Source of the DNA: Clostridia bacterium
GTDB lineage: Bacteria > Bacillota > Clostridia > Oscillospirales > QAMX01
Reading direction: 5' to 3'
DNA length: 45,403 bases
Assembly (NCBI GenBank): GCA_017533425.1
Contig: JAFXIE010000046.1
Coordinates: 1 to 45,403 of the forward strand
A program made the translations under genes and the position numbers. Shown in pieces: positions 21,455 through 33,791 of this stretch (positions within the stretch are counted from its first letter, which is position 1; every line of letters begins with the position of its first letter). Under the pieces are notes generated by a model. The model had not been told where the DNA came from. It ran no database searches and saw only the letters and a program-made list of their open reading frames with translations.

Positions 21455-23596
21455 TTACGCCTCGATTTCATATTCCCGCAGCTCGCCGCGATATTTGCGG
21501 GAGGCGGAGATCTTCTTCCAGCCCTTGGGGAAATGGGGTTCCACCACAACACCAGACTCGGAGGTGTGGCGGATGCCGGCAATGTACTCCACCATCATCC
21601 AAAGGAACCAGGCCACAGAGCCGGTGCCGTAGGAAAGGCTGGAACGGCCGAAATTCTCACCCGGCAGGCTGAAATAGAAGTTCGGGATGAAGGTCGGAGA
21701 CTGGAGGTTGCGCTCGGTGGGGTTCTTGGGGTTGATGGGCAGCACATCATAGAGGGTCTCAAAGGCTGCATCGGCATCGCCGCGGGCAATGTCCGAGGCG
21801 GCCTTGAACATAGTTCCGTGGCAGTAGGCACAGCCGTTTTCGGCGGTGCCGGGGTTCTTTGCGCTGATTCGGCCCCAAATGGCATTGTATTCGCGGAATT
21901 CCGGCGCAAAGAGAAGATATCCGGAATCAATATGCAGCGCATCAAAGCTCTTGACGATGCTTTCCAGCCGCTCGCCGCGGGCAATGCCCGCAAGAATGGC
22001 AAAGGACTGGGCATTGAGGAATTCCTTGGCCTCGGGATCATTATGGGATCCGTAGGGACGGCCGTCATCATCAATGCCGGCAAGATACCAGGCGCCGTCC
22101 CAGGCGCTGCGGTTCATGGCCTCGTCCAGGCGGTCGGCACTGGCGGCGAGCTCCTCATCCGGATGGACGGAAATGAGCTTGCGGATGGCATAGCAAAGGG
22201 CGGCGGTATTCCAGACGGACTCTCCTTTACCCTTGCGGCCGGGGCCGTTGAGGGGATCGGTCCAGTCGCCGTCGAGCATGAGGCACATGCCGTGCTCGCC
22301 GGTCTTTGCGCCCATGTAGCGGGCAGCCTTGCGCAGGTGCTCCAGCACCGTTTCCTTTTCATCGCAGTCGCCGTAGCCGACGAGGGTGTTGTAATACTCC
22401 GGTCTTCCGGACATTTCGATGATATTGACAAAGCAAAGGATAAGCCAGATGGGGCCGTCGGAATGCTCAATGAGGCAGAGCTTCTGGGGAGCGGAGCCGT
22501 CGGTCATGACCCAGCCCTTGATGTAACCGTCGTAGTGCTGGCCACGCATGACGTTGCAGACCACGCGGAATGCATCATCGGGATCGACCAGTGCATAGCC
22601 CATGGCATCCTGCAGCTGGTTGCGGATGGGGCAATAGGTGCCGGCACGGTTAAACTTTCCGAGGAAGAGAGCCTGCTTTTTCAGCCAAACGTTGAGCATG
22701 GCATTGAGATCATCATCGGGGGTGTCGATCCAGAAGCTCTCCAGGCGCTCTTCCCACACGGCACGGGCGGCATCCAGCTGGGCATCCACATTCAGATACT
22801 CCGCCTTCAGGGCAGGAAGCTCCGCAATGGATTTTGCAACACCTGCGAGGATATTGACGGCGGCACTGTCCTCAGCCCCAAGCTCAAAGACAAAATGCAG
22901 GGCGCCGCAGGTCATGCCCTCTTCGCTGACGCCGCAGGCCAGGCGGCCTTCGCGCACCGGAGCAGGAATGACATAGGGATTGTCCGCCCCGAAGAAGCGC
23001 TGGTTGTTGGTTTCATAGCTCTCCGGACGGATGTCGGAGGTGACATAGCAGATGTCCTTCTTTGCCAGGGCATTTTCATACTCTGCATAGTAAACATAAT
23101 AGGGGAAGCCGGCGCGATAGGCAGTGCCGGTGGCCTCGTCCCAGCGGGCGCACTGACCCATGGTGCCCGCCTTGGTCAGCCCAAAGCAGGTGAAAACCTC
23201 GGCGCGCATGGGCGCACCGGAGGTGTTCTCCACCGTGACCGTCCAGATCTCGGCCTCGCCCTTTGCGGGAACAAAGACGCGCACGCAAACGCTGAAGCCG
23301 TCAAACTCCTCGCGCACGGAGCTTTCCGCCATCTCATGGCGGCATTCGTAGCTCTTTCCGGCGCCAACCAGCAGGCGGTAGGCCTCGCCATTGACACGGA
23401 CAAAGAGATCCCGGTTCTCGGTGATATATTCCTTGGTGTTAAAGGTCTTGGACAGGGTGACACCTGCGCCCTGAAGACGCTGGGTGGCATCCAGCATATA
23501 TCCGTCATTGAACAAAAGATTCTTCCAGGGGGTGGGGGTATTGGGGGTGCGGATGGAAAGCACGCGGCCTCCCTCTTCAAAGGACCAGAATCTCAT
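21455..23596 (-). CDS. GH94 glycoside phosphorylase
   Basis: TPTPWKN, RNQLQD, GDWTDPL..GESVW, ENGCAYCH. Confidence 0.85.
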   Translation of the reverse strand: MRFWSFEEGGRVLSIRTPNTPTPWKNLLFNDGYMLDATQRLQGAGVTLSKTFNTKEYITENRDLFVRVNGEAYRLLVGAGKSYECRHEMAESSVREEFDGFSVCVRVFVPAKGEAEIWTVTVENTSGAPMRAEVFTCFGLTKAGTMGQCARWDEATGTAYRAGFPYYVYYAEYENALAKKDICYVTSDIRPESYETNNQRFFGADNPYVIPAPVREGRLACGVSEEGMTCGALHFVFELGAEDSAAVNILAGVAKSIAELPALKAEYLNVDAQLDAARAVWEERLESFWIDTPDDDLNAMLNVWLKKQALFLGKFNRAGTYCPIRNQLQDAMGYALVDPDDAFRVVCNVMRGQHYDGYIKGWVMTDGSAPQKLCLIEHSDGPIWLILCFVNIIEMSGRPEYYNTLVGYGDCDEKETVLEHLRKAARYMGAKTGEHGMCLMLDGDWTDPLNGPGRKGKGESVWNTAALCYAIRKLISVHPDEELAASADRLDEAMNRSAWDGAWYLAGIDDDGRPYGSHNDPEAKEFLNAQSFAILAGIARGERLESIVKSFDALHIDSGYLLFAPEFREYNAIWGRISAKNPGTAENGCAYCHGTMFKAASDIARGDADAAFETLYDVLPINPKNPTERNLQSPTFIPNFYFSLPGENFGRSSLSYGTGSVAWFLWMMVEYIAGIRHTSESGVVVEPHFPKGWKKISASRKYRGELREYEIEA

Positions 23597-23734: not shown

Positions 23735-24187
23735 ATGACCCTCACCCAAAAGGAATATGAGCTTCTCAAGGATCTCAAGGATCAGGAAAACCTCTGCGCC
23801 GAGAAATACACCCGCGCCGCAGAAGCCGCCGTGGACGGCCAGCTCAAAGGCCTCTTTACCCACCTTGCCGACAACGAGCGGCAGCATCTTGCCACCCTCT
23901 GCGAGATCGAATGCTGCACGCCCCCTGCCCCTGACTGCACGGAAAAGCCTCTTCCCTCCTTCACCCAGACCTACACCGGCGCAAATTCTCCCGACAAGGC
24001 GGGAGATGCCTTTCTCTGCACGGATATGCTCACCGCAGAGAAGCACGCCTCCTCCCTCTACGACACCTGTATCTTTGAATTTGCCGATGAAGGGGTCCGG
24101 AAAGCCCTCAACCACATCCAGAAGGAAGAGCAGAACCACGGAAAAATGGTCTACGACTATATGCACGCAAACCATATGTACGGATAA
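23735..24187 (+). CDS. Spore coat protein, ferritin-like (CotF-like)
   Basis: Duplicated ExxH helices (ENLCAEKY..ERQH; AEKH..Y..EEQNH) and YMHANHMY end. Confidence 0.75.
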   Translation: MTLTQKEYELLKDLKDQENLCAEKYTRAAEAAVDGQLKGLFTHLADNERQHLATLCEIECCTPPAPDCTEKPLPSFTQTYTGANSPDKAGDAFLCTDMLTAEKHASSLYDTCIFEFADEGVRKALNHIQKEEQNHGKMVYDYMHANHMYG

Positions 24188-24191
24188 TTTG

Positions 24192-24231
24192 AAAGGCGGC
24201 AGAGATCCCGATGATCTCTGCCGCTTTTTTT
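24192..24231. terminator. Bidirectional terminator
   Basis: gcggcagagatc/gatctctgccgc plus T run between convergent genes. Confidence 0.85.
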
Positions 24232-25288
24232 ACTTCAGTCTCCGCTGGAGTGCCTCCGGCCGCAGGGCATACTGCAGGGCGGTCTCCCGCGAGATGCGCC
24301 CCTCCCGGAAAAGCTCCAGAATGGCATCGTCCATGGCCACCATTTCCGCATCCCCCGCCGCAGAAACCAGCGCATCCAGCTGATGCACCCGGGATTCGCG
24401 GATGAGATTGCGCACCGCAGGGGTCGCATGGAGAATTTCAAACACAGGCACCAACGCACCGTCCTGCGTGGGAATGAGCTGCTGGGAAATGACGGAATTG
24501 AACACCATGGCCAGCTGCACACGGATCTGCTGCTGTCCCACCGGGGGGAAGCAATCGATGATGCGATCCACGGTGTTTGCCGCGCCGAGGGTGTGCAGGG
24601 TGGAGAAAACGAGATGCCCCGTCTCCGCGGCCGTCATGGCGGTGGAGATGGTTTCGTGGTCGCGCATCTCCCCCAGCAGAATGACATCCGGCGACTGGCG
24701 GAGGCTTGCCCGCAGTGCGGTGACATAATCCTTTGTATCGATCTGGATTTCCCGCTGGGAGATGATGCACCGGTCATGCCGGTGGAGATACTCCACGGGA
24801 TCCTCCAGAGTGATGATATGCCCATCCCGGGTGTGGTTGATGCGGTCAATGATGCAGGCAAGGGTGGTGGATTTTCCGCTGCCGGCGCTGCCGGTGATGA
24901 GGGTCAGACCCTTGTGCTGACCGGCCACGGCCATGACCCTTTCGGGGATGCCCAGCATCCGATAATCGGGAATGCCAAAGGAGATGATGCGGATAACGGC
25001 GGCAAGGGATCCCCGCTGCTTATAGGCGCTGACGCGCAGGCGCACCTTGCCGGGAACGGAGATGCAGAAATCGTCATCCCCGGAGGAAACCAGGCGTTCC
25101 ATATCCCGCCCGGCAATGCCGTAGGCCTCGGCGATGATGCGCTCCGACTGATCGGGCATGATGGCAGACTCGGAAATACAGCTGAGATTCCGGCCTGCCT
25201 TGCAGCTCACCGCCTTGCCGGGAACGACAAAGATATCCGAGGCGGAACGCGCCAGGGCAGTATCCAAGATTTGCAGAAAGGACAGCAT
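24230..25288 (-). CDS. pilT: PilT/PilU-family type IV pilus ATPase
   Basis: Walker A GSAGSGKST, Asp box TLEDPVE, Walker B LLGEMRD, His box GHLVFSTLH, AVRNLIRE. No PilB N-terminal domain or Zn motif. Confidence 0.88.
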   Translation of the reverse strand: MLSFLQILDTALARSASDIFVVPGKAVSCKAGRNLSCISESAIMPDQSERIIAEAYGIAGRDMERLVSSGDDDFCISVPGKVRLRVSAYKQRGSLAAVIRIISFGIPDYRMLGIPERVMAVAGQHKGLTLITGSAGSGKSTTLACIIDRINHTRDGHIITLEDPVEYLHRHDRCIISQREIQIDTKDYVTALRASLRQSPDVILLGEMRDHETISTAMTAAETGHLVFSTLHTLGAANTVDRIIDCFPPVGQQQIRVQLAMVFNSVISQQLIPTQDGALVPVFEILHATPAVRNLIRESRVHQLDALVSAAGDAEMVAMDDAILELFREGRISRETALQYALRPEALQRRLK

Positions 25289-25297
25289 ATACACCTC

Positions 25298-25717
25298 TCA
25301 ATTCCCGCCGGTCCACACGGAAATGGCATCCGACGGATTCCAGCGTTGGGTATTTTCGACACGCCAGGAGAGAATTTCCATCTCCCCATCAAAGCGAAGG
25401 GTCACGGCAAGCACCTGGCGGTCATCCAGGGGCACCCCATAGGATACGAGGTTTTCCCGCACCGTGCACGCATATTCTTCTGCACAGGACTCCAGCCGCT
25501 GCTCTGAATAGGCAGCCTCCAGCGCCCGGGCAATGTGCGCCGCCTCGGCATCCGCAAGATAAAAGGCAGCTTTTGCATCACATACGGTTACAGCTCTCGA
25601 AAGCTCTGCACGCGCCTTGGTCAGGGAAGTGACCGAAAAGATCGCCATCACCACCAGAGCAAAGGAAACCCCCAAAGAAACAAGGCCGACAGGGCCAAAA
25701 AAGCGTCGGTTATTCAC
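25298..25717 (-). CDS. Pilin-like protein (no E5)
   Basis: Basic N-terminus, Gly, single hydrophobic helix, then 'AAFYLADAEA' resembling PilX/GspK-type minor pilins. Confidence 0.55.
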   Translation of the reverse strand: MNNRRFFGPVGLVSLGVSFALVVMAIFSVTSLTKARAELSRAVTVCDAKAAFYLADAEAAHIARALEAAYSEQRLESCAEEYACTVRENLVSYGVPLDDRQVLAVTLRFDGEMEILSWRVENTQRWNPSDAISVWTGGN

Positions 25718-26073
25718 AATGCACCTCCCACGCGGAAGGAAAGGATGCAGGCATCCGCTTCAAATGCCTGCACCTGCATTTCACCGCCTGAAAAGCTGAA
25801 GCGCAGCGTAAAATCGGAGGTTTCATAGCAAAGCTCCCCGTCGACAGAGGGAATGTTCAGGCGCTTTGCAACAGAATCCGGATCCCCGGTGGCGCGGAAG
25901 GTCTCCGCCGCCATGACGGCGGCCTCCATGGCCGCATTGCGCACGCGGGCATCATCCCTGGCCTTAGCCGCCGCGCCGAAGGCCCGCAGGCAAACCGCCG
26001 CACCAAGGGAGAAGACCAGCAGCATGGCCGCAATTTCCAGGATCAGAAGTCCTGCACCCCGGCGATTATCCAT
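25714..26073 (-). CDS. Prepilin-like protein
   Basis: MDNRRGAG|LLILE fits a class III signal with Gly(-1) and Glu(+5), followed by a hydrophobic helix. Confidence 0.65.
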   Translation of the reverse strand: MDNRRGAGLLILEIAAMLLVFSLGAAVCLRAFGAAAKARDDARVRNAAMEAAVMAAETFRATGDPDSVAKRLNIPSVDGELCYETSDFTLRFSFSGGEMQVQAFEADACILSFRVGGAL

Positions 26074-26551
26074 GGTGTACCTCCCCGGCACAGCGCAGCG
26101 CCACCGAAAGGGTGGTGACATCCGCGCCGCTTTGCAATACGCAGGAGATGCCGCCGGCATCCAGCGAAGGGGTAAAGGCATCCAGCAGGACAATGGCCTC
26201 CCCGGCTGACGGGGAGAGCTTAGCACCGGCGGGGGCATACAGCTCGGTCAGATAGCCCGCATGGGCATACAGGCAGGTGACAAATTCCTCTCCCTCCACG
26301 CGTTCCCGGAGGATGAGGGCCGGAATTCCGCCGATTTCGCCGACCGCAATGCCGTCCCGCATATCTGCACGCTGCAGCCGGGCGGTGATATAGGCCGCCG
26401 CCGTGCGTCGGGCAAAGCCTTCATCGAGATCGGCCTGCATATCTCGGCTTGCCTGCGCGCCGCCAACCATGACACCGGCAAGACAGATGCCAAAGGCGAC
26501 AAGCAGCAGCACCGCGGCGGTATAGGTAAGGATTTTATGCGCCTTTTGCAT
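26066..26551 (-). CDS. DUF4860-like pilin-associated protein
   Basis: N-terminal TM, 'RTAAAYITARLQRAD' and 'LYAHAGYLTELY' patterns. Confidence 0.65.
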   Translation of the reverse strand: MQKAHKILTYTAAVLLLVAFGICLAGVMVGGAQASRDMQADLDEGFARRTAAAYITARLQRADMRDGIAVGEIGGIPALILRERVEGEEFVTCLYAHAGYLTELYAPAGAKLSPSAGEAIVLLDAFTPSLDAGGISCVLQSGADVTTLSVALRCAGEVHHG

Positions 26552-26555
26552 CCTT

Positions 26556-26876
26556 CTACCTCCGCACCACCGTGATATCCGGCATGATATTCTCCGCAAA
26601 AGCGGAATAATGAACGAAATATTTTTCCTCATCCACCGAAAGTGCGTAGTGCTCCCTGAGATAGGCAAAGCTTTCCGGGAAGCGCCCCTCCAGACAATAG
26701 CAGGTCACACAGGCGCGGCGGATGGCATCCTCCGCCAGGCGGAGGCTCTCCGCATCCGAGGTCTCCTTCACCTGGCGCATGGCTCGCGCAAAGAGAAGGA
26801 TGCAGCAGCACACCACCGCCCCGCAGAGCAGGGCGGCAACGACGGATATTACGCTTTTTTTCTCGCGTTTCAACAT
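26556..26876 (-). CDS. Small pseudopilin-like protein
   Basis: N-terminal TM followed by AIRRACVTCYCLEGRFPESFAYL, reminiscent of the GspG 'Y..D.G.YP' motif. Confidence 0.55.
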   Translation of the reverse strand: MLKREKKSVISVVAALLCGAVVCCCILLFARAMRQVKETSDAESLRLAEDAIRRACVTCYCLEGRFPESFAYLREHYALSVDEEKYFVHYSAFAENIMPDITVVRR

Positions 26877-26878
26877 AC

Positions 26879-27892
26879 TCAAAGCACCGAAAGAATGCCA
26901 AGCAGGGGCAGCATGACCCCCAAAAGAAGCAGGCCGACACCTGCGCTGAGAAGCAGCACCGCCACAGGCTCAATGACGGAAATGCGCCGGTTCAGGGTCT
27001 CCTCCACCAAGGCTGTATAGCGCTCGGAGAGGGTATCCATAACCGCCTCCATATCCCCGGCGGCCACGCACACGGAGAGATACCGAAGATCCATGCCGCG
27101 GAAAAGACCGGTTTCAGCGAGAATTTCCTGCAGGCTGTCGCCGGCCTCTGCCCGATCCGCCGCATGGCGGATGCGCCGGGCAAGTTCCCCTTCCGCAAGG
27201 TCTGCGGCAAAGGCAAGTCCCCGGGCGGCATCCATTCCCGCCGAGGAGGCCATGGAAAGGGCAGCGCAAAGATCCGCCGCCGCCTGCAGGCGGGCAACCT
27301 TGCCCGGTCTGCGGCCGGAATTTTTGCGGACAAGCAGAAGGGTCAGAAGCACCACCACAGCAATTCCGGCAAGGCCTGCCGGAAGGATCCAGCCAAGCTC
27401 CCGCAGAGCTTCTCCCGCAAGAAAAATTTTCTCCGCAAAGCCCGGCATCGTGGCACCGAGCTGGGAATAGACCCCGTGGAATACGGGAAGCACCTGCCCC
27501 GCCACCACATAAAGCACCGCAAGCAGCACCGCCGCAAGGCAGACCGGGTAAATAACCGCGCTGCGCACGGCCCGCGCCACTCTGGCTCGCATATGCCAGA
27601 AGGCAGCCAGCCGCCGCAGGGTTTTCGCCCCGTGGCCGGTGGCCTCGCCGACAGAAAGCATGCGGGTCATATACGCAGGGATTGCACCGCCGGCAGAGAG
27701 GCAGTCCGTAAGGCTTCTGCCCTCCTCCGCAGCCCCTTCCATCCGGGCAAAAAGTGCCTTCAGTGCGGGATTTTTCTCTCCCTCCCCCAGGGCTGCAAAG
27801 ACTTCGCCCGCAGGGATACCGACATCCACCGCCTCTGCAAGGGTCTCGCAGAGGGAAGCCAGCATATTCACATCCGGACGAAAGCTTCGCAT
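26879..27892 (-). CDS. Type II secretion F / PilC platform protein
   Basis: Two T2SSF repeats (MLSVGEATG..AVIYP; AAGDM..IEP..VGLLLLGVMLPL), 337 aa. Confidence 0.88.
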   Translation of the reverse strand: MRSFRPDVNMLASLCETLAEAVDVGIPAGEVFAALGEGEKNPALKALFARMEGAAEEGRSLTDCLSAGGAIPAYMTRMLSVGEATGHGAKTLRRLAAFWHMRARVARAVRSAVIYPVCLAAVLLAVLYVVAGQVLPVFHGVYSQLGATMPGFAEKIFLAGEALRELGWILPAGLAGIAVVVLLTLLLVRKNSGRRPGKVARLQAAADLCAALSMASSAGMDAARGLAFAADLAEGELARRIRHAADRAEAGDSLQEILAETGLFRGMDLRYLSVCVAAGDMEAVMDTLSERYTALVEETLNRRISVIEPVAVLLLSAGVGLLLLGVMLPLLGILSVL

Positions 27893-27905
27893 ACGTATTT
27901 CTCCG

Positions 27906-29027
27906 TCAATAGATATATTTTGCCTGATAATTCGATGTTTTTGCGATGTAGGCCATGATTTCCGCGCTGGAATTTGCGGTGGATGCAAAGGTGGGATCCA
28001 TGAGCTTCCAATCGCTTCCGTTGAAGAAGATGGTACCCTCGATCCAGCCGCTTTCCGCGGTATAGGTGCTGATCCAGGCATGGTATTCCGCGCCGGTATA
28101 GCCGACAACCAGCTTGGTGGGGATGCCGTAGGCGCGCAGCATAGCCGTCATCAGGGCGGCATAATCAAAGCAGATGCCCTTTTTCTCTGCAAAAACCTTG
28201 TCAATATCGGGAATATAGCCGCTTTTGACACTGGCGGCCTTAGCATAATCATACTGCGTATTGGTTACAACATAGTTATAAATGGCGGCAATTCGCTCCA
28301 AATCCTTCATTTCCTCCCGCAGAATGGTGGAGGCAAAGGCGATTGCGGCGCTGTCTTTGCTGTAATTGACATACTGATTCGGATGAAGGAAGGGAGCATT
28401 CGCATCCGTAAGGGAAACCGCCAGGGTCTCGGCGGCGAGGGTCGCGTACTTATTGCCTGTCACGGCGCAGTAGACCGCAACCTTATAGCTTCCGCTGCCG
28501 TCGGAGAACTGGAAAACCTCATAGCTGTCCGCGCCGTTGAGATTGTAGGTGTAGGCAATGCCGCTGGGGCCGGTGATGATGACCTTCAGGCGGCGGGTGG
28601 ACTTTGCGCGGATCATGACATAGCCATCCTTGGTATTGGAGGCATCGATGGTCACCGGCTCGGTGTCCGTTCCGGCGGAAATGACCTTTGTGCCGGAGGC
28701 CACCGGCTTGAAAACATGGGAAACCGCAGGGGTTCCGCCGACAACGCCCTGCAGGGTATCCGGCTTCTTTGTGGGAGTGGCCGTTGGTGCTGCCGTCACC
28801 GTCGGCGAGGGGGTTGGCATCACCGTGGGCGAGGGGACTGCCATAACGGAAGGCGACGGCTGCTGTGTGGCGATCGGGGACTCCGTCGGAGGGGCGGTGG
28901 GTGCCGCCGTCACGGTCGGCGAGGGTTGCGCCGGCACATCGGAGGCCGGGGGCTGAACATCGCCGCAGGCAGAAAACATAAGCGCAAGAAGCATGATAAA
29001 AATCAGACAAACCATCGGCCTGCGCAT
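27906..29027 (-). CDS. Transglutaminase-like domain lipoprotein with Pro/Thr-rich linker
   Basis: Lipobox FSAC, PSPTV repeats, catalytic GICFDYA / YHAW / MDPT. Confidence 0.85.
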   Translation of the reverse strand: MRRPMVCLIFIMLLALMFSACGDVQPPASDVPAQPSPTVTAAPTAPPTESPIATQQPSPSVMAVPSPTVMPTPSPTVTAAPTATPTKKPDTLQGVVGGTPAVSHVFKPVASGTKVISAGTDTEPVTIDASNTKDGYVMIRAKSTRRLKVIITGPSGIAYTYNLNGADSYEVFQFSDGSGSYKVAVYCAVTGNKYATLAAETLAVSLTDANAPFLHPNQYVNYSKDSAAIAFASTILREEMKDLERIAAIYNYVVTNTQYDYAKAASVKSGYIPDIDKVFAEKKGICFDYAALMTAMLRAYGIPTKLVVGYTGAEYHAWISTYTAESGWIEGTIFFNGSDWKLMDPTFASTANSSAEIMAYIAKTSNYQAKYIY

Positions 29028-29055
29028 GAAACACCGCCTCCCTTCTATGGGTTTC

Positions 29056-29064
29056 ATTATACCA
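29056..29064 (-). promoter_or_regulatory. Extended -10 promoter of the pilus-like operon
   Basis: TGGTATAAT on the minus strand; weak -35. Confidence 0.5.
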
Positions 29065-29137: not shown

Positions 29138-30547
29138 TTAGAAGATATCGGCGATGCTTTCGCCCTTCTCCACCATGTCGATGAGCTTCAGCAGGTGGTT
29201 GACTGCCGTCACGCTGACATAGCTGTTGCAGGTGCCGTTGACCGTGGCCGCATACTGGCGGGAATTGATGCGGGAAAGGGTCAGCACATTCTTTGTTCCG
29301 TCGCGCATGGTGAAGGTGACGGAATACTGCACCTCATCGGGAACCTTGCCTGTGTAGCTTCCCACCGCGTAGAAGGAGAGCATACCTGCGTAGAGGGAGC
29401 GTGCATCGTCCACCTGCAGAGCCTTGCCCTGGAAGGTGGCCTCAAAGTGGCCGTTGCCCTCTTCATCGGTCTGGTCATCCACGGTAAAGACATAGTTTTT
29501 GCCGTTGCAGAAGATATCCGCCCTGGAGACCTCCTTGATGCTGTACATAAAGAGGCCGGTTTCCAGAATGTCCTCTCCGCGGACATCGAGGAAGGTGAAG
29601 TCGCCGGAAACGGCGAGCACCATGGGGATGCCTTCCTTCATGACAAAGATAAAGTCCTCGTCCATATAGCCGATCAGCAGGGTGGTTTTCTCCCCGTCTG
29701 TGAGCCCGACGGTAACGCGGATGGGATTTTTCAGTCCGTAGGCGGCGAGATCCTGGGGGAAATCCTCCACAACGCCGACAACGGAAAGATTCATGATCTT
29801 ATCGAGAATGCGGTTGGTCACATTGTAGTTATCCGCAGCGCCCGACTTGGGAGCAGTCTCGATAAAGACACTGCCGTCGGATTCGGGGTTTCTCTCAAAG
29901 GCCAGGCGATAGCCGTCCGGCAGGAGCATCTCATAGGAGGCCACGTTGTCATAGGTGCCTTCGTTCATGGCCGGGAGAATGTTGGTGTCGCGGTAATAGC
30001 TCGCCGGGCTGGAGAGGGTCTCCTTGATGGATGCGCTGGTGGTATAGACGCAATCCAGCGTATCGACATAGACATAGCACAGGGTGCCGTCCAGCGGATA
30101 GGCATCGCCAAAGATAATGGTGTCCTTCTCCGCTTGATTTGTCCGGGTGACGACAACCGTGGGGCGCTTATCGGAAATGCCGTACTTTGAAAGATCCGCA
30201 GGGTTCTTTTCGATGACTTCCTGGCCGCCGAGGCCGGCAATCATATCTACCGTCATGATGAAGAAGCTCTGCTTGGACTCAAAGGTATCGTCGCCCTCGA
30301 TGGAATAGAAGACATTGCCCGCCTTAAAGCCCTTTTTGAAGGCAAAGGGATCGCCAACTGCGGTATTTTTGAACTCCACGCGCTCAATAAAGGCGGAGTC
30401 ATACTCAAAAATATCCACAAGCTCGGTAACGCTGGTGGGATCCTCCGGCTCATTCTCCGGCAGAAGCAGCCAGACGGTAAGCACGGCGGCCAGCAGCACG
30501 GCGAGTACGACGGCGGCAATGATGATGGTCTTTTTCTGCTTATTCAT
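29138..30547 (-). CDS. DUF4340-like membrane-anchored extracellular protein
   Basis: N-terminal TM and repeated 'DLSKYGI/DLAAYGL..P' motifs, downstream of a GldG-like gene. Confidence 0.7.
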   Translation of the reverse strand: MNKQKKTIIIAAVVLAVLLAAVLTVWLLLPENEPEDPTSVTELVDIFEYDSAFIERVEFKNTAVGDPFAFKKGFKAGNVFYSIEGDDTFESKQSFFIMTVDMIAGLGGQEVIEKNPADLSKYGISDKRPTVVVTRTNQAEKDTIIFGDAYPLDGTLCYVYVDTLDCVYTTSASIKETLSSPASYYRDTNILPAMNEGTYDNVASYEMLLPDGYRLAFERNPESDGSVFIETAPKSGAADNYNVTNRILDKIMNLSVVGVVEDFPQDLAAYGLKNPIRVTVGLTDGEKTTLLIGYMDEDFIFVMKEGIPMVLAVSGDFTFLDVRGEDILETGLFMYSIKEVSRADIFCNGKNYVFTVDDQTDEEGNGHFEATFQGKALQVDDARSLYAGMLSFYAVGSYTGKVPDEVQYSVTFTMRDGTKNVLTLSRINSRQYAATVNGTCNSYVSVTAVNHLLKLIDMVEKGESIADIF

Positions 30548-32043
30548 TACTTATTCTTCCTCCGGAACCAGACGAGAACGCCCATAATGAGCAGAGCCGC
30601 GGGGATGATGCAGAGGATGCTGAGTACAAAGGTCTTCTCCCAGTTGAGCAGAACGATCTGCGGGGTTGCAAACTCATTGGCCTCGTAGATGGAGAGGTCG
30701 GGGGTCTCAAAGAGCTCGTTGAGGATGGCGGTGAAGAACTCCTGATTGGTATACTTGGAGGAGTTGAAGAACTCATCCTGCAGGCAGAAGGCGGAGCCGA
30801 GAACCAGCATACGGCTGGTGCGCAACTCAAAGGTTCCGGTCTCCACCGTGGAGTACTCGGAGAGGCAGGCAATGTTGAAGGGGCCGGCGAAATCCGAATC
30901 CTCCTTGACTACCACAGACTGGGTCACATCGGCATTGGCCTTGGCAAAGGAGCTGTCGGAGGAGGTCAGAATGGCGCGGGAGGCAAAACCGGTGGGACGG
31001 CCTTCATTGAGCTTCAGCTGCAGAGAAAGGGGCATGATGATATTATTTGCATAGGGAACGTTTTCAAACATCGGCTCGGTCTCACTGAGAATGCCGGAGA
31101 TATTTGCCGCGCCGAGGGATACCTTGGTATCAAAGATGGTGTTCTCGGTGATATCCACGCCGTAGTCGGAGATAAAGCGGCGCAGCTCAGGCAGCTCACC
31201 GTTGGCGGGAGAAAGGGCCACGAACATATCCACGCCGTCGCCGGCAAGATACTGCTCAAGCTTTGCGATCTCCGCCTCGGTGTAGTCAAGCTTCGGCGCA
31301 ACCAGCACCACAAGATCGGTCTCCTCCGGAATATCCGCCGAGGAGAGGTTGACCGACAGGTTTTCAAAGTTGTTGAGCTCCAGGAAGGTGGCAAAGGCGT
31401 TGAGATTGTCCGCCTCGCCGTGGCCGGAGATAAAGACAGCGGTCTTGCGCTCCGCCTCATCCAGGAAGAGAATGCCGGAGGCGATGCTGCGCTCCACCTG
31501 CAGGCCGATGGGGCTCATGCCCTGCTCATAGCTCTCATCAAAGGAATAGAACCAGTAATAGAGCTGATGGAGGGGAATGGTGCGGTAGCTGTTCTTTTCA
31601 TTTGCGACGATGATGGTATAGGGAGAGATCTCACCGATACCCTCAAAGCGGTTGAGGAACTGGGGATTTGTGCCGACGTCAACATACTCCACCTTGACCA
31701 TGCCGTCGGAAAGGACGGGATACTTATTGAGCACCTCGACGATCTCATTTCCGTAGGTGGTCATGGGAATGCTGTCGGCGCTGTACATCATATGGTTGCG
31801 CATTTCCGCCTCGGTGGCGACCACATAGATGGTGATCTCCTCCTCCAGCCCGGAAAGCAGCTTTTCGGTTGCCTCGGTAATGGCATAGCGGCCATCGCGG
31901 GTCATATCGACCTCAAGACCCAGGCGCTCGGTCAGCAGGGTAACACCGATATTGACCACAAGAATGGCCACAATAACGACAATGGACAGCAGCACGGCCA
32001 TGGAGCCGTATTTGAACCTGCGTCCGAAATTGATCTTGTTCAT
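30547..32043 (-). CDS. GldG-like ABC transporter auxiliary protein
   Basis: DMTRDGRYAITEAT, FISGHGE, PKLDYTEAE; N- and C-terminal TMs. Confidence 0.8.
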   Translation of the reverse strand: MNKINFGRRFKYGSMAVLLSIVVIVAILVVNIGVTLLTERLGLEVDMTRDGRYAITEATEKLLSGLEEEITIYVVATEAEMRNHMMYSADSIPMTTYGNEIVEVLNKYPVLSDGMVKVEYVDVGTNPQFLNRFEGIGEISPYTIIVANEKNSYRTIPLHQLYYWFYSFDESYEQGMSPIGLQVERSIASGILFLDEAERKTAVFISGHGEADNLNAFATFLELNNFENLSVNLSSADIPEETDLVVLVAPKLDYTEAEIAKLEQYLAGDGVDMFVALSPANGELPELRRFISDYGVDITENTIFDTKVSLGAANISGILSETEPMFENVPYANNIIMPLSLQLKLNEGRPTGFASRAILTSSDSSFAKANADVTQSVVVKEDSDFAGPFNIACLSEYSTVETGTFELRTSRMLVLGSAFCLQDEFFNSSKYTNQEFFTAILNELFETPDLSIYEANEFATPQIVLLNWEKTFVLSILCIIPAALLIMGVLVWFRRKNK

Positions 32044-32100
32044 CTTCTGTCTTCAGCCTTTCTGGATGAATTGTATGGTTATTCGTCCGATTCCCGGGGA

Positions 32101-32805
32101 TCAAGCATATCTCTTCTTTTCCAGCATCCGGCCGGTGAGGAAGAGGAAGATGGCCGCGATGCTGATGTAGAAGAGGAAGTCCGAGAAGTTGAAAATGCCG
32201 AGACGAACATTGTCAAAGCGGGAATAGAAGGCCAGCCACTTGCCGACCGCAACGGTGAAGGGAGTGTCGTAGGAGCCAACCGCGATATCCACCACCAGCA
32301 GACCGATGAACACAGCCCAGGACAGAATGCCGGAGATGAAGTTGGATTCGGTCATGGAGGAGATAAATATGCCGATGGCAAGGAAGGCCGCCGCAAAGAA
32401 GAAGGTGGAAAGGTAGTTTCCGAGGGTCGTCCAGAAGACAAAGCCGCCGACACTGGCAAGCACCACCGGGATAAGCAGGGTTCCGCACAGAGCCAGGGCA
32501 ATGACCGCCAGGGCGGCAAAGAACTTGCCAAGTACGATGGACATGACGCTGACCGGCGCCGTCAGCAGCAGCTGATCGGTCTTCTTGTTGTACTCATTGC
32601 TGATGAGGTTCATGGTCAGGAGGGGAATAATGAGGGCAATGAGCATCTGCGCAAAGAGGAAGAGGGTGGACATATCCGCCGTCTCACCGGAGATATTGAC
32701 CAGATAGAACACACCGTAGAAAACGAGGATGGTGATGGCGATAAAGACATAGCCCACGGGAGAGCGGAAGAAGGAGGCAAATTCTCTTTTAAAAATGGCT
32801 TTCAT
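32101..32805 (-). CDS. ABC-2 type permease (GldF-like)
   Basis: AIFKREFASFFRSPVGY, TDQLLLTAP..IVLGKF. Confidence 0.85.
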   Translation of the reverse strand: MKAIFKREFASFFRSPVGYVFIAITILVFYGVFYLVNISGETADMSTLFLFAQMLIALIIPLLTMNLISNEYNKKTDQLLLTAPVSVMSIVLGKFFAALAVIALALCGTLLIPVVLASVGGFVFWTTLGNYLSTFFFAAAFLAIGIFISSMTESNFISGILSWAVFIGLLVVDIAVGSYDTPFTVAVGKWLAFYSRFDNVRLGIFNFSDFLFYISIAAIFLFLTGRMLEKKRYA

Positions 32806-33791
32806 TACTGCTTGTCCTCCTTATTTTTCCGGGCGCGCTTGCCGCCCTTGGCAGGTACGTCCTCTTCAACAGTGAGCTTGACGAAGATATCCTCCAGGGA
32901 GGCGCCGGCATCGCGCATTTCGAGAATGGCGCTGCCCAGCTGCTCCAGCTTGCGGAAGAGGGGCTGGCGGATATCGATGCCGGGCGCAGAGGTCAGCTGA
33001 TAGTCGCAGGAGCCGGACTCCTTCTCGCCGAGGATCTCCACATTTTTCATGCCGTCGATGGTGCGCAGCGCAGGGGCAACGACCTTGACATCGCCGGTGA
33101 TGCGGACATTCAGGCGGCGGACGCCGTCCACCCGGGCGCCAAGATCGGCAGCTCTGCCGTCGGCAACGATTTTACCGTTGTTGATGACGAGCACGCGCTC
33201 GCAGATGGCCTGCACCTCGGGCAGGATATGGGTGGAAAGGATAACCGTGCGCTCACGGCCGAGGTTTTTGATGACGTTGCGGATCTCGATGATCTGAATG
33301 GGGTCAAGACCGACGGTGGGCTCGTCAAGAATGAGCACCTCCGGGTCGCCGACCAGCGCCTGCGCCAGGCCGACGCGCTGCTTGTAGCCCTTGGAGAGGT
33401 TGCGGATGAGGCGATCGGCCACATGGGTAATGCCCACCAGCTCGCAGATCTCATCCAGATGCGCCTTGCGGGGCAGCTGCACCTTTTTCAGGTCAAAGAC
33501 GAAATTCAGAAATTCGCGGACGGTCATATCCATATACAGCGGGGGCTGCTCGGGAAGATAACCGATGTTTTTCTTTGCCGCAATGGGATCCTCCAGAATA
33601 TCCACATCGCCGATGAGGGCGGTGCCGGAGGTGGCGGAGAGATAGCCGGTGATCATATTCATGGTGGTGGACTTGCCGGCGCCGTTGGGGCCGAGAAAGC
33701 CTACGATCTCCCCCTTTTCAATGCGGAAGGAGATGCCGTTGACGGCGTGCTTGTTGCCGTAGTGCTTTACCAGGTCGCGTACTTCGATCAT
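32805..33791 (-). CDS. ABC transporter ATP-binding protein (GldA-like)
   Basis: GPNGAGKST, LSKGYKQRVG, LILDEPTVGLDP. Confidence 0.92.
   Translation of the reverse strand: MIEVRDLVKHYGNKHAVNGISFRIEKGEIVGFLGPNGAGKSTTMNMITGYLSATSGTALIGDVDILEDPIAAKKNIGYLPEQPPLYMDMTVREFLNFVFDLKKVQLPRKAHLDEICELVGITHVADRLIRNLSKGYKQRVGLAQALVGDPEVLILDEPTVGLDPIQIIEIRNVIKNLGRERTVILSTHILPEVQAICERVLVINNGKIVADGRAADLGARVDGVRRLNVRITGDVKVVAPALRTIDGMKNVEILGEKESGSCDYQLTSAPGIDIRQPLFRKLEQLGSAILEMRDAGASLEDIFVKLTVEEDVPAKGGKRARKNKEDKQ

Follow-up and report, generated by a model that had tools for sequence, protein, structure and literature searches.

The DNA analysed here is a stretch of 45,403 nucleotides from a Clostridia bacterium (GenBank assembly GCA_017533425.1, contig JAFXIE010000046.1, positions 1 to 45,403), referred to below as the window. 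On its minus strand it contains a compact transcription unit of seven genes (29064–24196), which encodes a platform protein, four small pilin-like subunits and a secretion ATPase of the type IV filament superfamily, together with a transglutaminase-like lipoprotein. In the direction of transcription, these are tgl, which has an ATG start and encodes the lipoprotein (27906–29027; 373 aa); the platform gene (26879–27892; 337 aa); the genes of the subunits A (26556–26876; 106 aa), B (26066–26551; 161 aa), C (25714–26073; 119 aa) and D (25298–25717; 139 aa, start GTG); and pilT, which encodes the ATPase (24230–25288; 352 aa). Successive genes from tgl to pilT are spaced by +13, +2, +4, −8, −4 and +9 nt. 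An extended −10 promoter element (TGgTATAAT, 29056–29064, minus strand), read directly from the sequence, lies between the terminator of the preceding operon and the ribosome-binding site GGGAGG (29042–29037, minus strand) upstream of the tgl ATG. The original prediction, made from the bare sequence, had described seven co-oriented genes with gaps or overlaps of at most 13 nt, an upstream extended −10 element, and the order transglutaminase-like lipoprotein, 337-aa PilC/GspF protein, four small single-transmembrane proteins and PilT-type ATPase; the gene model and the Pfam and NCBIfam matches confirm this layout throughout.

Components of the operon

The platform protein belongs to the GspF/PilC/ComGB superfamily and contains two T2SSF domains (PF00482; 104.5 bits over 2 stretches, cut-off 25.2), both matched in one reading frame. 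It stays below the cut-off of every NCBIfam equivalog model (score/cut-off: GspF 121/424, HofC 103/401, PilC 93/700, ComGB 56/240). Its alignment covers positions 7–330 of the 332-position ComGB profile, and it thus has the length of ComGB.

The last gene encodes a hexameric secretion ATPase, which scores 380.6 bits against the PilT/PilU model TIGR01420 (cut-off 319.1, profile positions 2–341 of 343), 141 bits against the Pfam T2SSE family and 135.5 bits against the ComGA model, the last being below the cut-off of 300. It aligns over its full length with Aquifex PilT (2gsz_A, 282 bits), and PilB, GspE and PilF reach at most 85 bits. The alignment to 2gsz_A shows the motifs GSGKST, DVILLGEMRD and AVRNLIRE, which we take to be Walker A, Walker B and the AIRNLIRE-type motif, respectively; the PilB N-domain is absent from the translation. 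A tree of 68 ATPases was obtained by a quick IQ-TREE search with support from the Shimodaira–Hasegawa-like approximate likelihood ratio test (SH-aLRT), and its references are genomic sequences, none of them experimentally studied. It unites 44 operon ATPases (the window's, those of nine relatives, 28 randomly chosen from the L033–L112 locus set with a length of 330–380 aa, and six from high-quality genomes), ten canonical PilT proteins encoded beside or near PilB, nine PilB-type proteins and a Tad-type outgroup of five. All operon ATPases except one (43 of 44) form a single clade (SH-aLRT 99) within the PilT clade (98), and the PilB clade is separate (99). By sequence, the operon ATPase thus belongs to the PilT clade, where it forms a subclade of its own, apart from PilB. 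The initial description of the sole ATPase as a PilT-clade protein, with an AVRNLIRE motif and no PilB N-domain, is borne out by the translation, the TIGR01420 match, the alignment to 2gsz_A and the tree.

The copy that falls outside the operon clade comes from genome G072 (locus L129, G072:C2:788000-791500) and groups among the canonical PilT proteins. The DUF4860 match in this genome is low (6e-15), and the locus may represent an operon that has diverged or recombined.

The four small subunits differ in how readily their relationships can be recognized. Counts out of 80 homologues given below refer to fetched loci. Subunit C is a prepilin-type subunit by its N-terminal motif and its orthologues. 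Its N-terminus, MDNRRGAG/LLILE, has, by eye, a Gly at position −1 and a Glu at position +5; 75 of 80 homologues share this Glu, and 23 of 80 have Gly at −1. In a set of 29 high-quality carrier genomes (at least 96% complete), C orthologues exceed the cut-off of the Pfam N_methyl family (PF07963) in 15. Across all fetched members, Pfam detects N_methyl in 2 of 80 C proteins and PilX_N in 2 of 80 D proteins. The predicted structure of C resembles a cluster in the Atlas with 87% N_methyl members (template modelling score 0.80). In a profile search of the PDB, the best matches of C were geopilin (E 0.076) and PilA (E 0.11), both non-significant, and D matched nothing.

Subunit B is a member of the DUF4860 family (PF16152; 71.3 bits, cut-off 25). 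Its AlphaFold2 model, based on an alignment of 83 sequences (mean predicted local distance difference test score, pLDDT, 89.1), consists of a helix spanning residues 2–61 followed by eight strands. In a structural ranking against 48,161 chains (VIA-wide), the top positions are held by the type IV-like pilin TTHA1219 of Thermus (Z 9.3, 108 residues aligned), EpsJ (8.7, 122), GspJ (8.7, 112) and XcpW (8.5, 112), followed by the S. sanguinis minor pilin PilB (Z 6.7); lower rows cover the long helix only, and unrelated proteins score at most 5.9. Because of this ranking, we assign DUF4860, by its predicted fold, to the GspJ-type minor pseudopilins. A word-index protein search with B returned one near-identical match, as such an index misses proteins that evolve this fast.

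Subunit A, which has no Pfam family, is pilin-like by its predicted fold. The AlphaFold2 model (alignment of 88 sequences, pLDDT 88.2) comprises a helix at residues 4–63, a short helix and a hairpin, and the top eight chains of the same structural ranking are all pilins or pseudopilins. The best of them is PilA4 (6xxd_A; Z 7.4, which falls in the aligner's middling range; root-mean-square deviation 2.5, 95 of 106 residues aligned), followed by EpsG (5.9) and PulG (5.7). A is the most conserved of the four subunits and carries the motif CY-x-x-EG-x-[YF]-P. Six residues of this small extracytoplasmic protein, C59 (the single Cys), Y60, E63, G64, P67 and N96, do not vary among 88 sequences of the A family. 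To judge from the sequences, they look less like part of the structural core than like a site for binding or reaction, which could serve the Cys-enzyme Tgl as a target or partner.

Subunit D has a Gly before its hydrophobic helix in 80 of 80 homologues and I, L, V or M at position +5 in 76 of 80, a pattern (Gly without Glu+5) that we take to be the N-terminus of GspK, PilX and ComGG. One D homologue is named “PilX N-terminal domain-containing” in UniRef. The Atlas yielded only unnamed Bacillota clusters for D, with DUF2509 as the nearest named family (0.81, below the threshold for a lead). Profile comparisons over the N-terminal helix connect A with C (94% probability, 76 columns) and B with C (80%, 62 columns), and the link between D and C is weaker (62%). 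A predicted complex of A, B, C and D gave a score of 0.76 with D as the partner, and a control in which B was replaced gave 0.63; these values were used neither way. In summary, all four small proteins are pilin-like, A and B by predicted fold, C by motif and D by its N-terminus. The question of pilin folds raised by the original prediction is answered most clearly for B, which is GspJ-like, and A, which is pilin-like, both by model, and for C, which is prepilin-type by motif and orthologues.

Public records name the subunits as hypothetical, DUF4860, “prepilin-type”, “PilX N-terminal” and, once, “short-chain dehydrogenase”. The last name is given by NCBI and UniRef to the D homologue of Lacrimispora sp. 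38-1 (L099:7244-7714) and looks like a misannotation.

The first gene of the operon encodes the transglutaminase-like lipoprotein Tgl. It consists of a signal peptide with a lipobox-like sequence (LMFSAC), a linker rich in Pro, Thr and Ser, a conserved region rich in beta structure and a Transglut_core domain (PF01841; 77.3 bits, cut-off 23, residues 230–329). The catalytic triad Cys286/His316/Asp344 is invariant in 78 of 78 aligned homologues. Its nearest solved structures are the putative cysteine protease 3isr_A (E 4e-5) and the protein-glutamine gamma-glutamyltransferase 6g49_A (E 7e-5). Since its topology places Tgl outside the membrane, it cannot be the leader peptidase of the system.

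Distribution and genomic context

The operon is widely conserved in Clostridia. DUF4860 is present in 12 of 41 related genomes, the window's own included, and the ten loci fetched from relatives contain the same genes, eight of them in the order of the window and two with tgl moved behind pilT. Tgl is linked to the operon in every case, even where its gene is shifted in this way. A scan for the A-family motif in one genome per species returned at least 600 pattern matches, of which 597 of the 600 examined encode a relative of A. With home-made hidden Markov models of the seven proteins, all seven genes were recovered in the same order and on the same strand in 70 of the 80 best loci, and in the other ten a contig end lies inside the operon. 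These loci come from Lachnospiraceae, Oscillospiraceae, Butyricicoccus, Intestinibacillus, Blautia, Lacrimispora, metagenome-assembled genomes of Faecalibacterium, Christensenellales, Anaerovoracaceae and others. Seven genes in one order in 70 of 80 loci from other species exclude a chance arrangement. The flanks of the fetched loci hold no further conserved neighbour, only lineage-specific housekeeping genes. Among 400 evenly sampled Clostridia genomes (at least 95% complete), DUF4860 was found in 32, in 30 of them over the cut-off. Some carriers are gut commensals that have been cultured, among them Butyricicoccus pullicaecorum DSM 23266, Intestinibacillus massiliensis, Blautia and Lacrimispora.

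In the window's lineage, the operon stands without the remaining genes of a canonical type IV filament system. We examined the window's genome (G000, 86% complete) and six related carriers (G001, 65%, and G002, 91%, both of the same genus as G000; G007, 91%; G015, 90%; G023, 85%; G036, 85%), which together span four genera. In G000, the operon ATPase is the only T2SSE match over the cut-off and the platform gene is the only T2SSF gene. A second T2SSE match is absent from six of the seven genomes, and G015 has one extra piece of 228 aa. The prepilin peptidase family Peptidase_A24 (PF01478) was found in none of the seven. N_methyl motifs are missing altogether in five of them, including G000, and G015 has two, located on another contig. 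Chance loss of the same genes from seven independent assemblies is very unlikely. Because A24 is lacking in all seven genomes and a second T2SSE ATPase in six, the locus does not represent a fragmentary canonical system in this lineage.

The original prediction had left open whether the system is self-contained or borrows PilB and PilD in trans, and had called for a whole-genome search for an extension ATPase and a prepilin peptidase. For the window's lineage this search speaks for a self-contained system and makes help in trans untenable. The second option stands as a possibility in other carriers: among the 29 high-quality genomes, an ATPase of PilB size occurs in 16 and is absent from 13, and an A24 peptidase occurs in 26 and is absent from three. 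Most of the 13 genomes without PilB hold a Tad-type ATPase, and in one of them (G423, 98% complete) the operon ATPase is the only such ATPase. At each of the eight PilB loci that we fetched, a separate canonical PilT gene adjoins pilB, and three related carriers (G005, G009 and G012) contain a full type IVa pilus (T4aP) system with its own PilT elsewhere in the genome. The operon thus occurs alongside other type IV filament systems without depending on them. The further expectation that its gene order would be conserved in other Clostridia holds in the 70 complete loci, the other ten being cut by contig ends.

Three high-quality genomes combine features in an unusual way. In G423, G119 and G276 (98–99% complete), C of the operon (G423:C2, L131:753-1259; G119:C126; G276:C59) carries the only N_methyl motif of the genome, with the textbook sequence RRG/FTLIE, which forms the N-terminus of the G423 protein. 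No A24 prepilin peptidase was detectable in any of the three despite this canonical prepilin. We had considered that a degenerate prepilin motif tracks the loss of the peptidase, and dropped this idea since genomes without A24 are found both with canonical C (G119, G276 and G423) and with degenerate C.

Relation to known systems and possible mode of action

The operon shares features with four known members of the superfamily. ComG resembles it in having a single operon, a single ATPase, a distribution in Firmicutes and a platform of the same length, as well as one subunit of about 100 aa followed by further pilin-like subunits, the last of which lacks Glu+5. It differs in several respects: the ATPase is of the PilT clade and not ComGA, the ComC/A24 peptidase is absent from the window's lineage, the small subunit A lacks a prepilin motif, and the operon contains an extra transglutaminase-like lipoprotein. 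In ComG, the ATPase gene comes first and is followed by comGB to comGG, whereas here it comes last. The defining parts of ComG were not found in G000, where ComGA remains below its cut-off and neither an N_methyl motif nor an A24 peptidase was detected. With T4aP, the operon shares a PilT/PilU-family ATPase with an AIRNLIRE-type motif, a PilC-family platform and pilin-fold subunits. In contrast to T4aP, the window's lineage has no PilB, no PilD and no N_methyl major pilin (PilM, PilN and PilO were not searched for), and the operon ATPases form their own clade, apart from the canonical PilT proteins that are encoded beside PilB in the same class.

The subunits look like the tip set GspH-I-J-K of the type II secretion system (T2SS): B matches EpsJ, GspJ and XcpW (Z 8.5–8.7), D has a K-like N-terminus, and four small subunits are encoded together beside a GspF-family platform. 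Unlike T2SS, the system occurs in a monoderm host, has no GspE, GspG, secretin, GspL/M or GspO, and shows no membership at the sequence level. One-motor operation is known for Tad and ComG, and in Tad a single ATPase (CpaF/TadA) is thought to serve both directions. Retraction in Tad occurs without PilT, according to passages of Denise et al, 2019 (PMC6668835). The operon differs from Tad in that its ATPase belongs to another clade, Tad being the outgroup of the tree, in that it has one two-domain platform gene instead of TadB and TadC, and in that it contains neither a Flp pilin nor TadV. The module therefore lacks the defining features of ComG, T4aP, T2SS and Tad, and in its way of working comes closest to ComG.

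The literature search returned no description of this gene set and no paper on DUF4860. The set is unmentioned in the passages of Denise et al, 2019 (PMC6668835) that we consulted, whose supplementary lists of “generic” systems might hold such loci, and in those of Imam et al, 2011 (PMC3244431). Within this search and these published passages, the earlier statement that no characterized system has this gene set stands. We conclude that the operon represents a distinct, widespread and uncharacterized family within the type IV filament superfamily. It probably encodes a self-contained module with one PilT-clade motor, assembled from a single operon in many Clostridia.

Such a module may work as follows. 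The platform of ComGB length would carry A–D in the membrane, and the PilT-clade ATPase would dock onto it as the only motor. A–D might form a short pseudopilus through the thick wall, in which B, C and D make up the tip and the stem consists of A, a small subunit like a major pilin; D, which lacks Glu+5, would be the GspK/PilX-like cap. By analogy with the single ATPase of Tad, the PilT-type hexamer could turn the platform both ways, inserting and withdrawing subunits, so that a PilT-type motor would also drive extension. Tgl, outside the membrane, could cut or cross-link wall peptides, or the filament and its subunits, where these pass the wall. Candidate cellular roles are the uptake of DNA or another substrate, adhesion and export through the wall. 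A piston-like or anchored structure is as likely as a long free filament, and the latter is doubtful because a cleavage motif is missing from A and B and no peptidase was found in the lineage. In its most far-reaching form, the proposal is a new family in which a PilT-clade sole motor drives assembly and disassembly without a peptidase, with a transglutaminase-like enzyme on the wall side that is coupled to the machine and either opens the peptidoglycan or anchors the filament by covalent bonds; we regard this version as tentative and would sooner expect it to need revision than to hold in full.

Several observations weigh against a self-contained, PilT-driven filament. To our knowledge, all PilT proteins characterized so far serve in retraction, with an extension ATPase at work alongside. 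For the window's lineage, the genomes used are metagenome-assembled and 65–91% complete. The absence of A24 in all seven leaves cleavage of the subunits without an enzyme, and an uncleaved, positively charged leader should hinder extraction from the membrane, so that a long free filament is doubtful on this ground too. In the window's own proteins, no Pfam pilin family exceeds its threshold for A, C or D, an N_methyl-type motif is missing from A, B and D, and both Gly−1 and Glu+5 are missing from A and B. A Foldseek search of the PDB returned nothing at E ≤ 0.001 for either B or A, with pilins as weak rows only, and the best structural score of A is, as noted above, middling. Outside the lineage, the carriers with a PilB-size ATPase (16 of 29) or an A24 peptidase (26 of 29) could supply help in trans. 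One report (10.1101/2021.03.09.434644) states that extension uses a PilB-type motor “in all T4P”. A precedent in favour of the reading comes from another report (PMC9815625), in which extension of the V. cholerae MSHA pilus needs PilT.

Three other explanations were considered. That PilT is the retraction motor in all studied systems, that A–D resemble a set of minor pilins, and that many high-quality carriers have PilB-size ATPases and A24 peptidases would all fit an accessory module, which provides alternative priming minor pilins and a second retraction motor for a T4aP, ComG or Tad system encoded elsewhere. We consider this quite improbable: none of the seven related carriers has A24 and six have no other T2SSE ATPase, 13 of 29 high-quality carriers are without PilB and G423 has only the operon ATPase, carriers of T4aP keep a separate canonical PilT beside PilB, and the operon's own platform gene would be superfluous in an accessory set. 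The module might alternatively replace ComG as a competence pseudopilus that pulls DNA across the wall to ComEA and ComEC, with the inward stroke provided by the PilT-type motor. The platform of ComGB length speaks for this, as does the order of platform, small pilin and three further subunits, which mirrors comGB to comGG, and G000 contains ComEC and a ComEA-like gene with no type IV filament genes other than those of the operon. DNA uptake by diderm T4aP is powered by PilT retraction, according to passages of PMC6668835. DNA uptake is thus possible, but the two genes do not discriminate, as ComEC and ComEA matches occur regardless of the operon (in 10 and 9 of 14 control genomes, respectively); in addition, the operon is found in only 32 of the 400 sampled Clostridia and its proteins are far below the cut-offs of the ComGA and ComGB models. 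A competence pseudopilus is therefore unlikely.

A third explanation dispenses with a filament. A–D would remain membrane-anchored with uncleaved leaders and form a fixed scaffold in the wall zone, which positions or activates Tgl, and the pair of PilT and platform would only turn over or rearrange this complex. The constant linkage of tgl to the operon and its invariant catalytic triad would be expected on such grounds, as would the lack of a prepilin peptidase in the window's lineage, of Gly−1 and Glu+5 in A and B, and of Gly−1 in C outside 23 of 80 homologues. The predicted folds and the Glu+5 of C are, however, typical of polymerizing subunits, the prepilin motif of C is fully canonical in 15 of 29 carriers, and a hexameric motor with a rotary platform would be costly for a static scaffold; we give this explanation little credence. 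A self-contained module with a single PilT-clade motor accordingly remains our preferred reading.

The working rule in the field assigns extension to PilB-type motors and retraction alone to PilT. An operon with a platform, a pilin set and a PilT-clade ATPase as its sole motor, found in genomes that encode no further ATPase of this kind, either breaks this rule or belongs to a machine that does something else, and both outcomes would be informative. Should the most far-reaching form of the proposal be true, hundreds of species of gut Clostridia would possess a filament system with PilT alone, the first to occur naturally. The operon provides a natural setting in which to ask how the direction of hexameric motors is determined and whether pilin-like subunits can function with their leaders uncleaved, and the existence of cultured carriers makes bench testing feasible. 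In addition, DUF4860 gains a predicted GspJ-like fold, three unnamed protein families gain a context, and a transglutaminase-like enzyme is linked to a type IV filament machine, a link for which we found no precedent in the literature.

Flanking signals, expression and neighbouring genes

The extended −10 element of the operon is unlisted in a sigma-70 promoter scan, and its −35 region is weak. Of 73 upstream regions surveyed, 33 contain TATAAT and 14 a pattern like an extended −10 element. On the downstream side, a 12-bp inverted repeat (24196–24224), read directly from the sequence, follows the pilT stop codon and is shared with a convergent gene on the plus strand, which encodes a Coat_F domain protein (23735–24187; 68.9 bits). 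The downstream terminator that had been proposed for the operon is thus present as a hairpin, but its T-run lies on the plus strand, that of the Coat_F gene, and the terminator scan lists the hairpin on neither strand. The position of the T-run on the opposite strand makes the hairpin better suited to the Coat_F gene than to pilT.

A mobile element or foreign island was considered and rejected: the G+C content of the operon is like that of its surroundings, and the flanks vary between species. PADLOC assigned no defence family to the operon and gave only P-loop noise on the ATPase.

The whole or part of the stretch is present in 20 public sequencing runs from nine studies, two of the runs being recorded as RNA. 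In these two metatranscriptome libraries, both of one study, parts of each of the seven genes are covered by contigs with 93–99% identity. In RNA library X19, the operon's flanks are without cover, which counts as no finding. Since DNA carry-over is possible in RNA libraries, the cover of the seven genes is weak evidence of expression; it fits expression in the animal gut, without proving it.

The preceding operon, also on the minus strand (29138–33791), encodes an ABC ATPase, an ABC-2 permease, a GldG-like ABC_transp_aux protein and a DUF4340 protein, and ends in a strong intrinsic terminator (29130–29099, minus strand; terminator scan). Beyond the Coat_F gene lies a gene for a GH94-family phosphorylase-like protein (21455–23596, minus strand; Glyco_hydro_94, 194 bits, and a supersandwich domain), which is unrelated to the operon.

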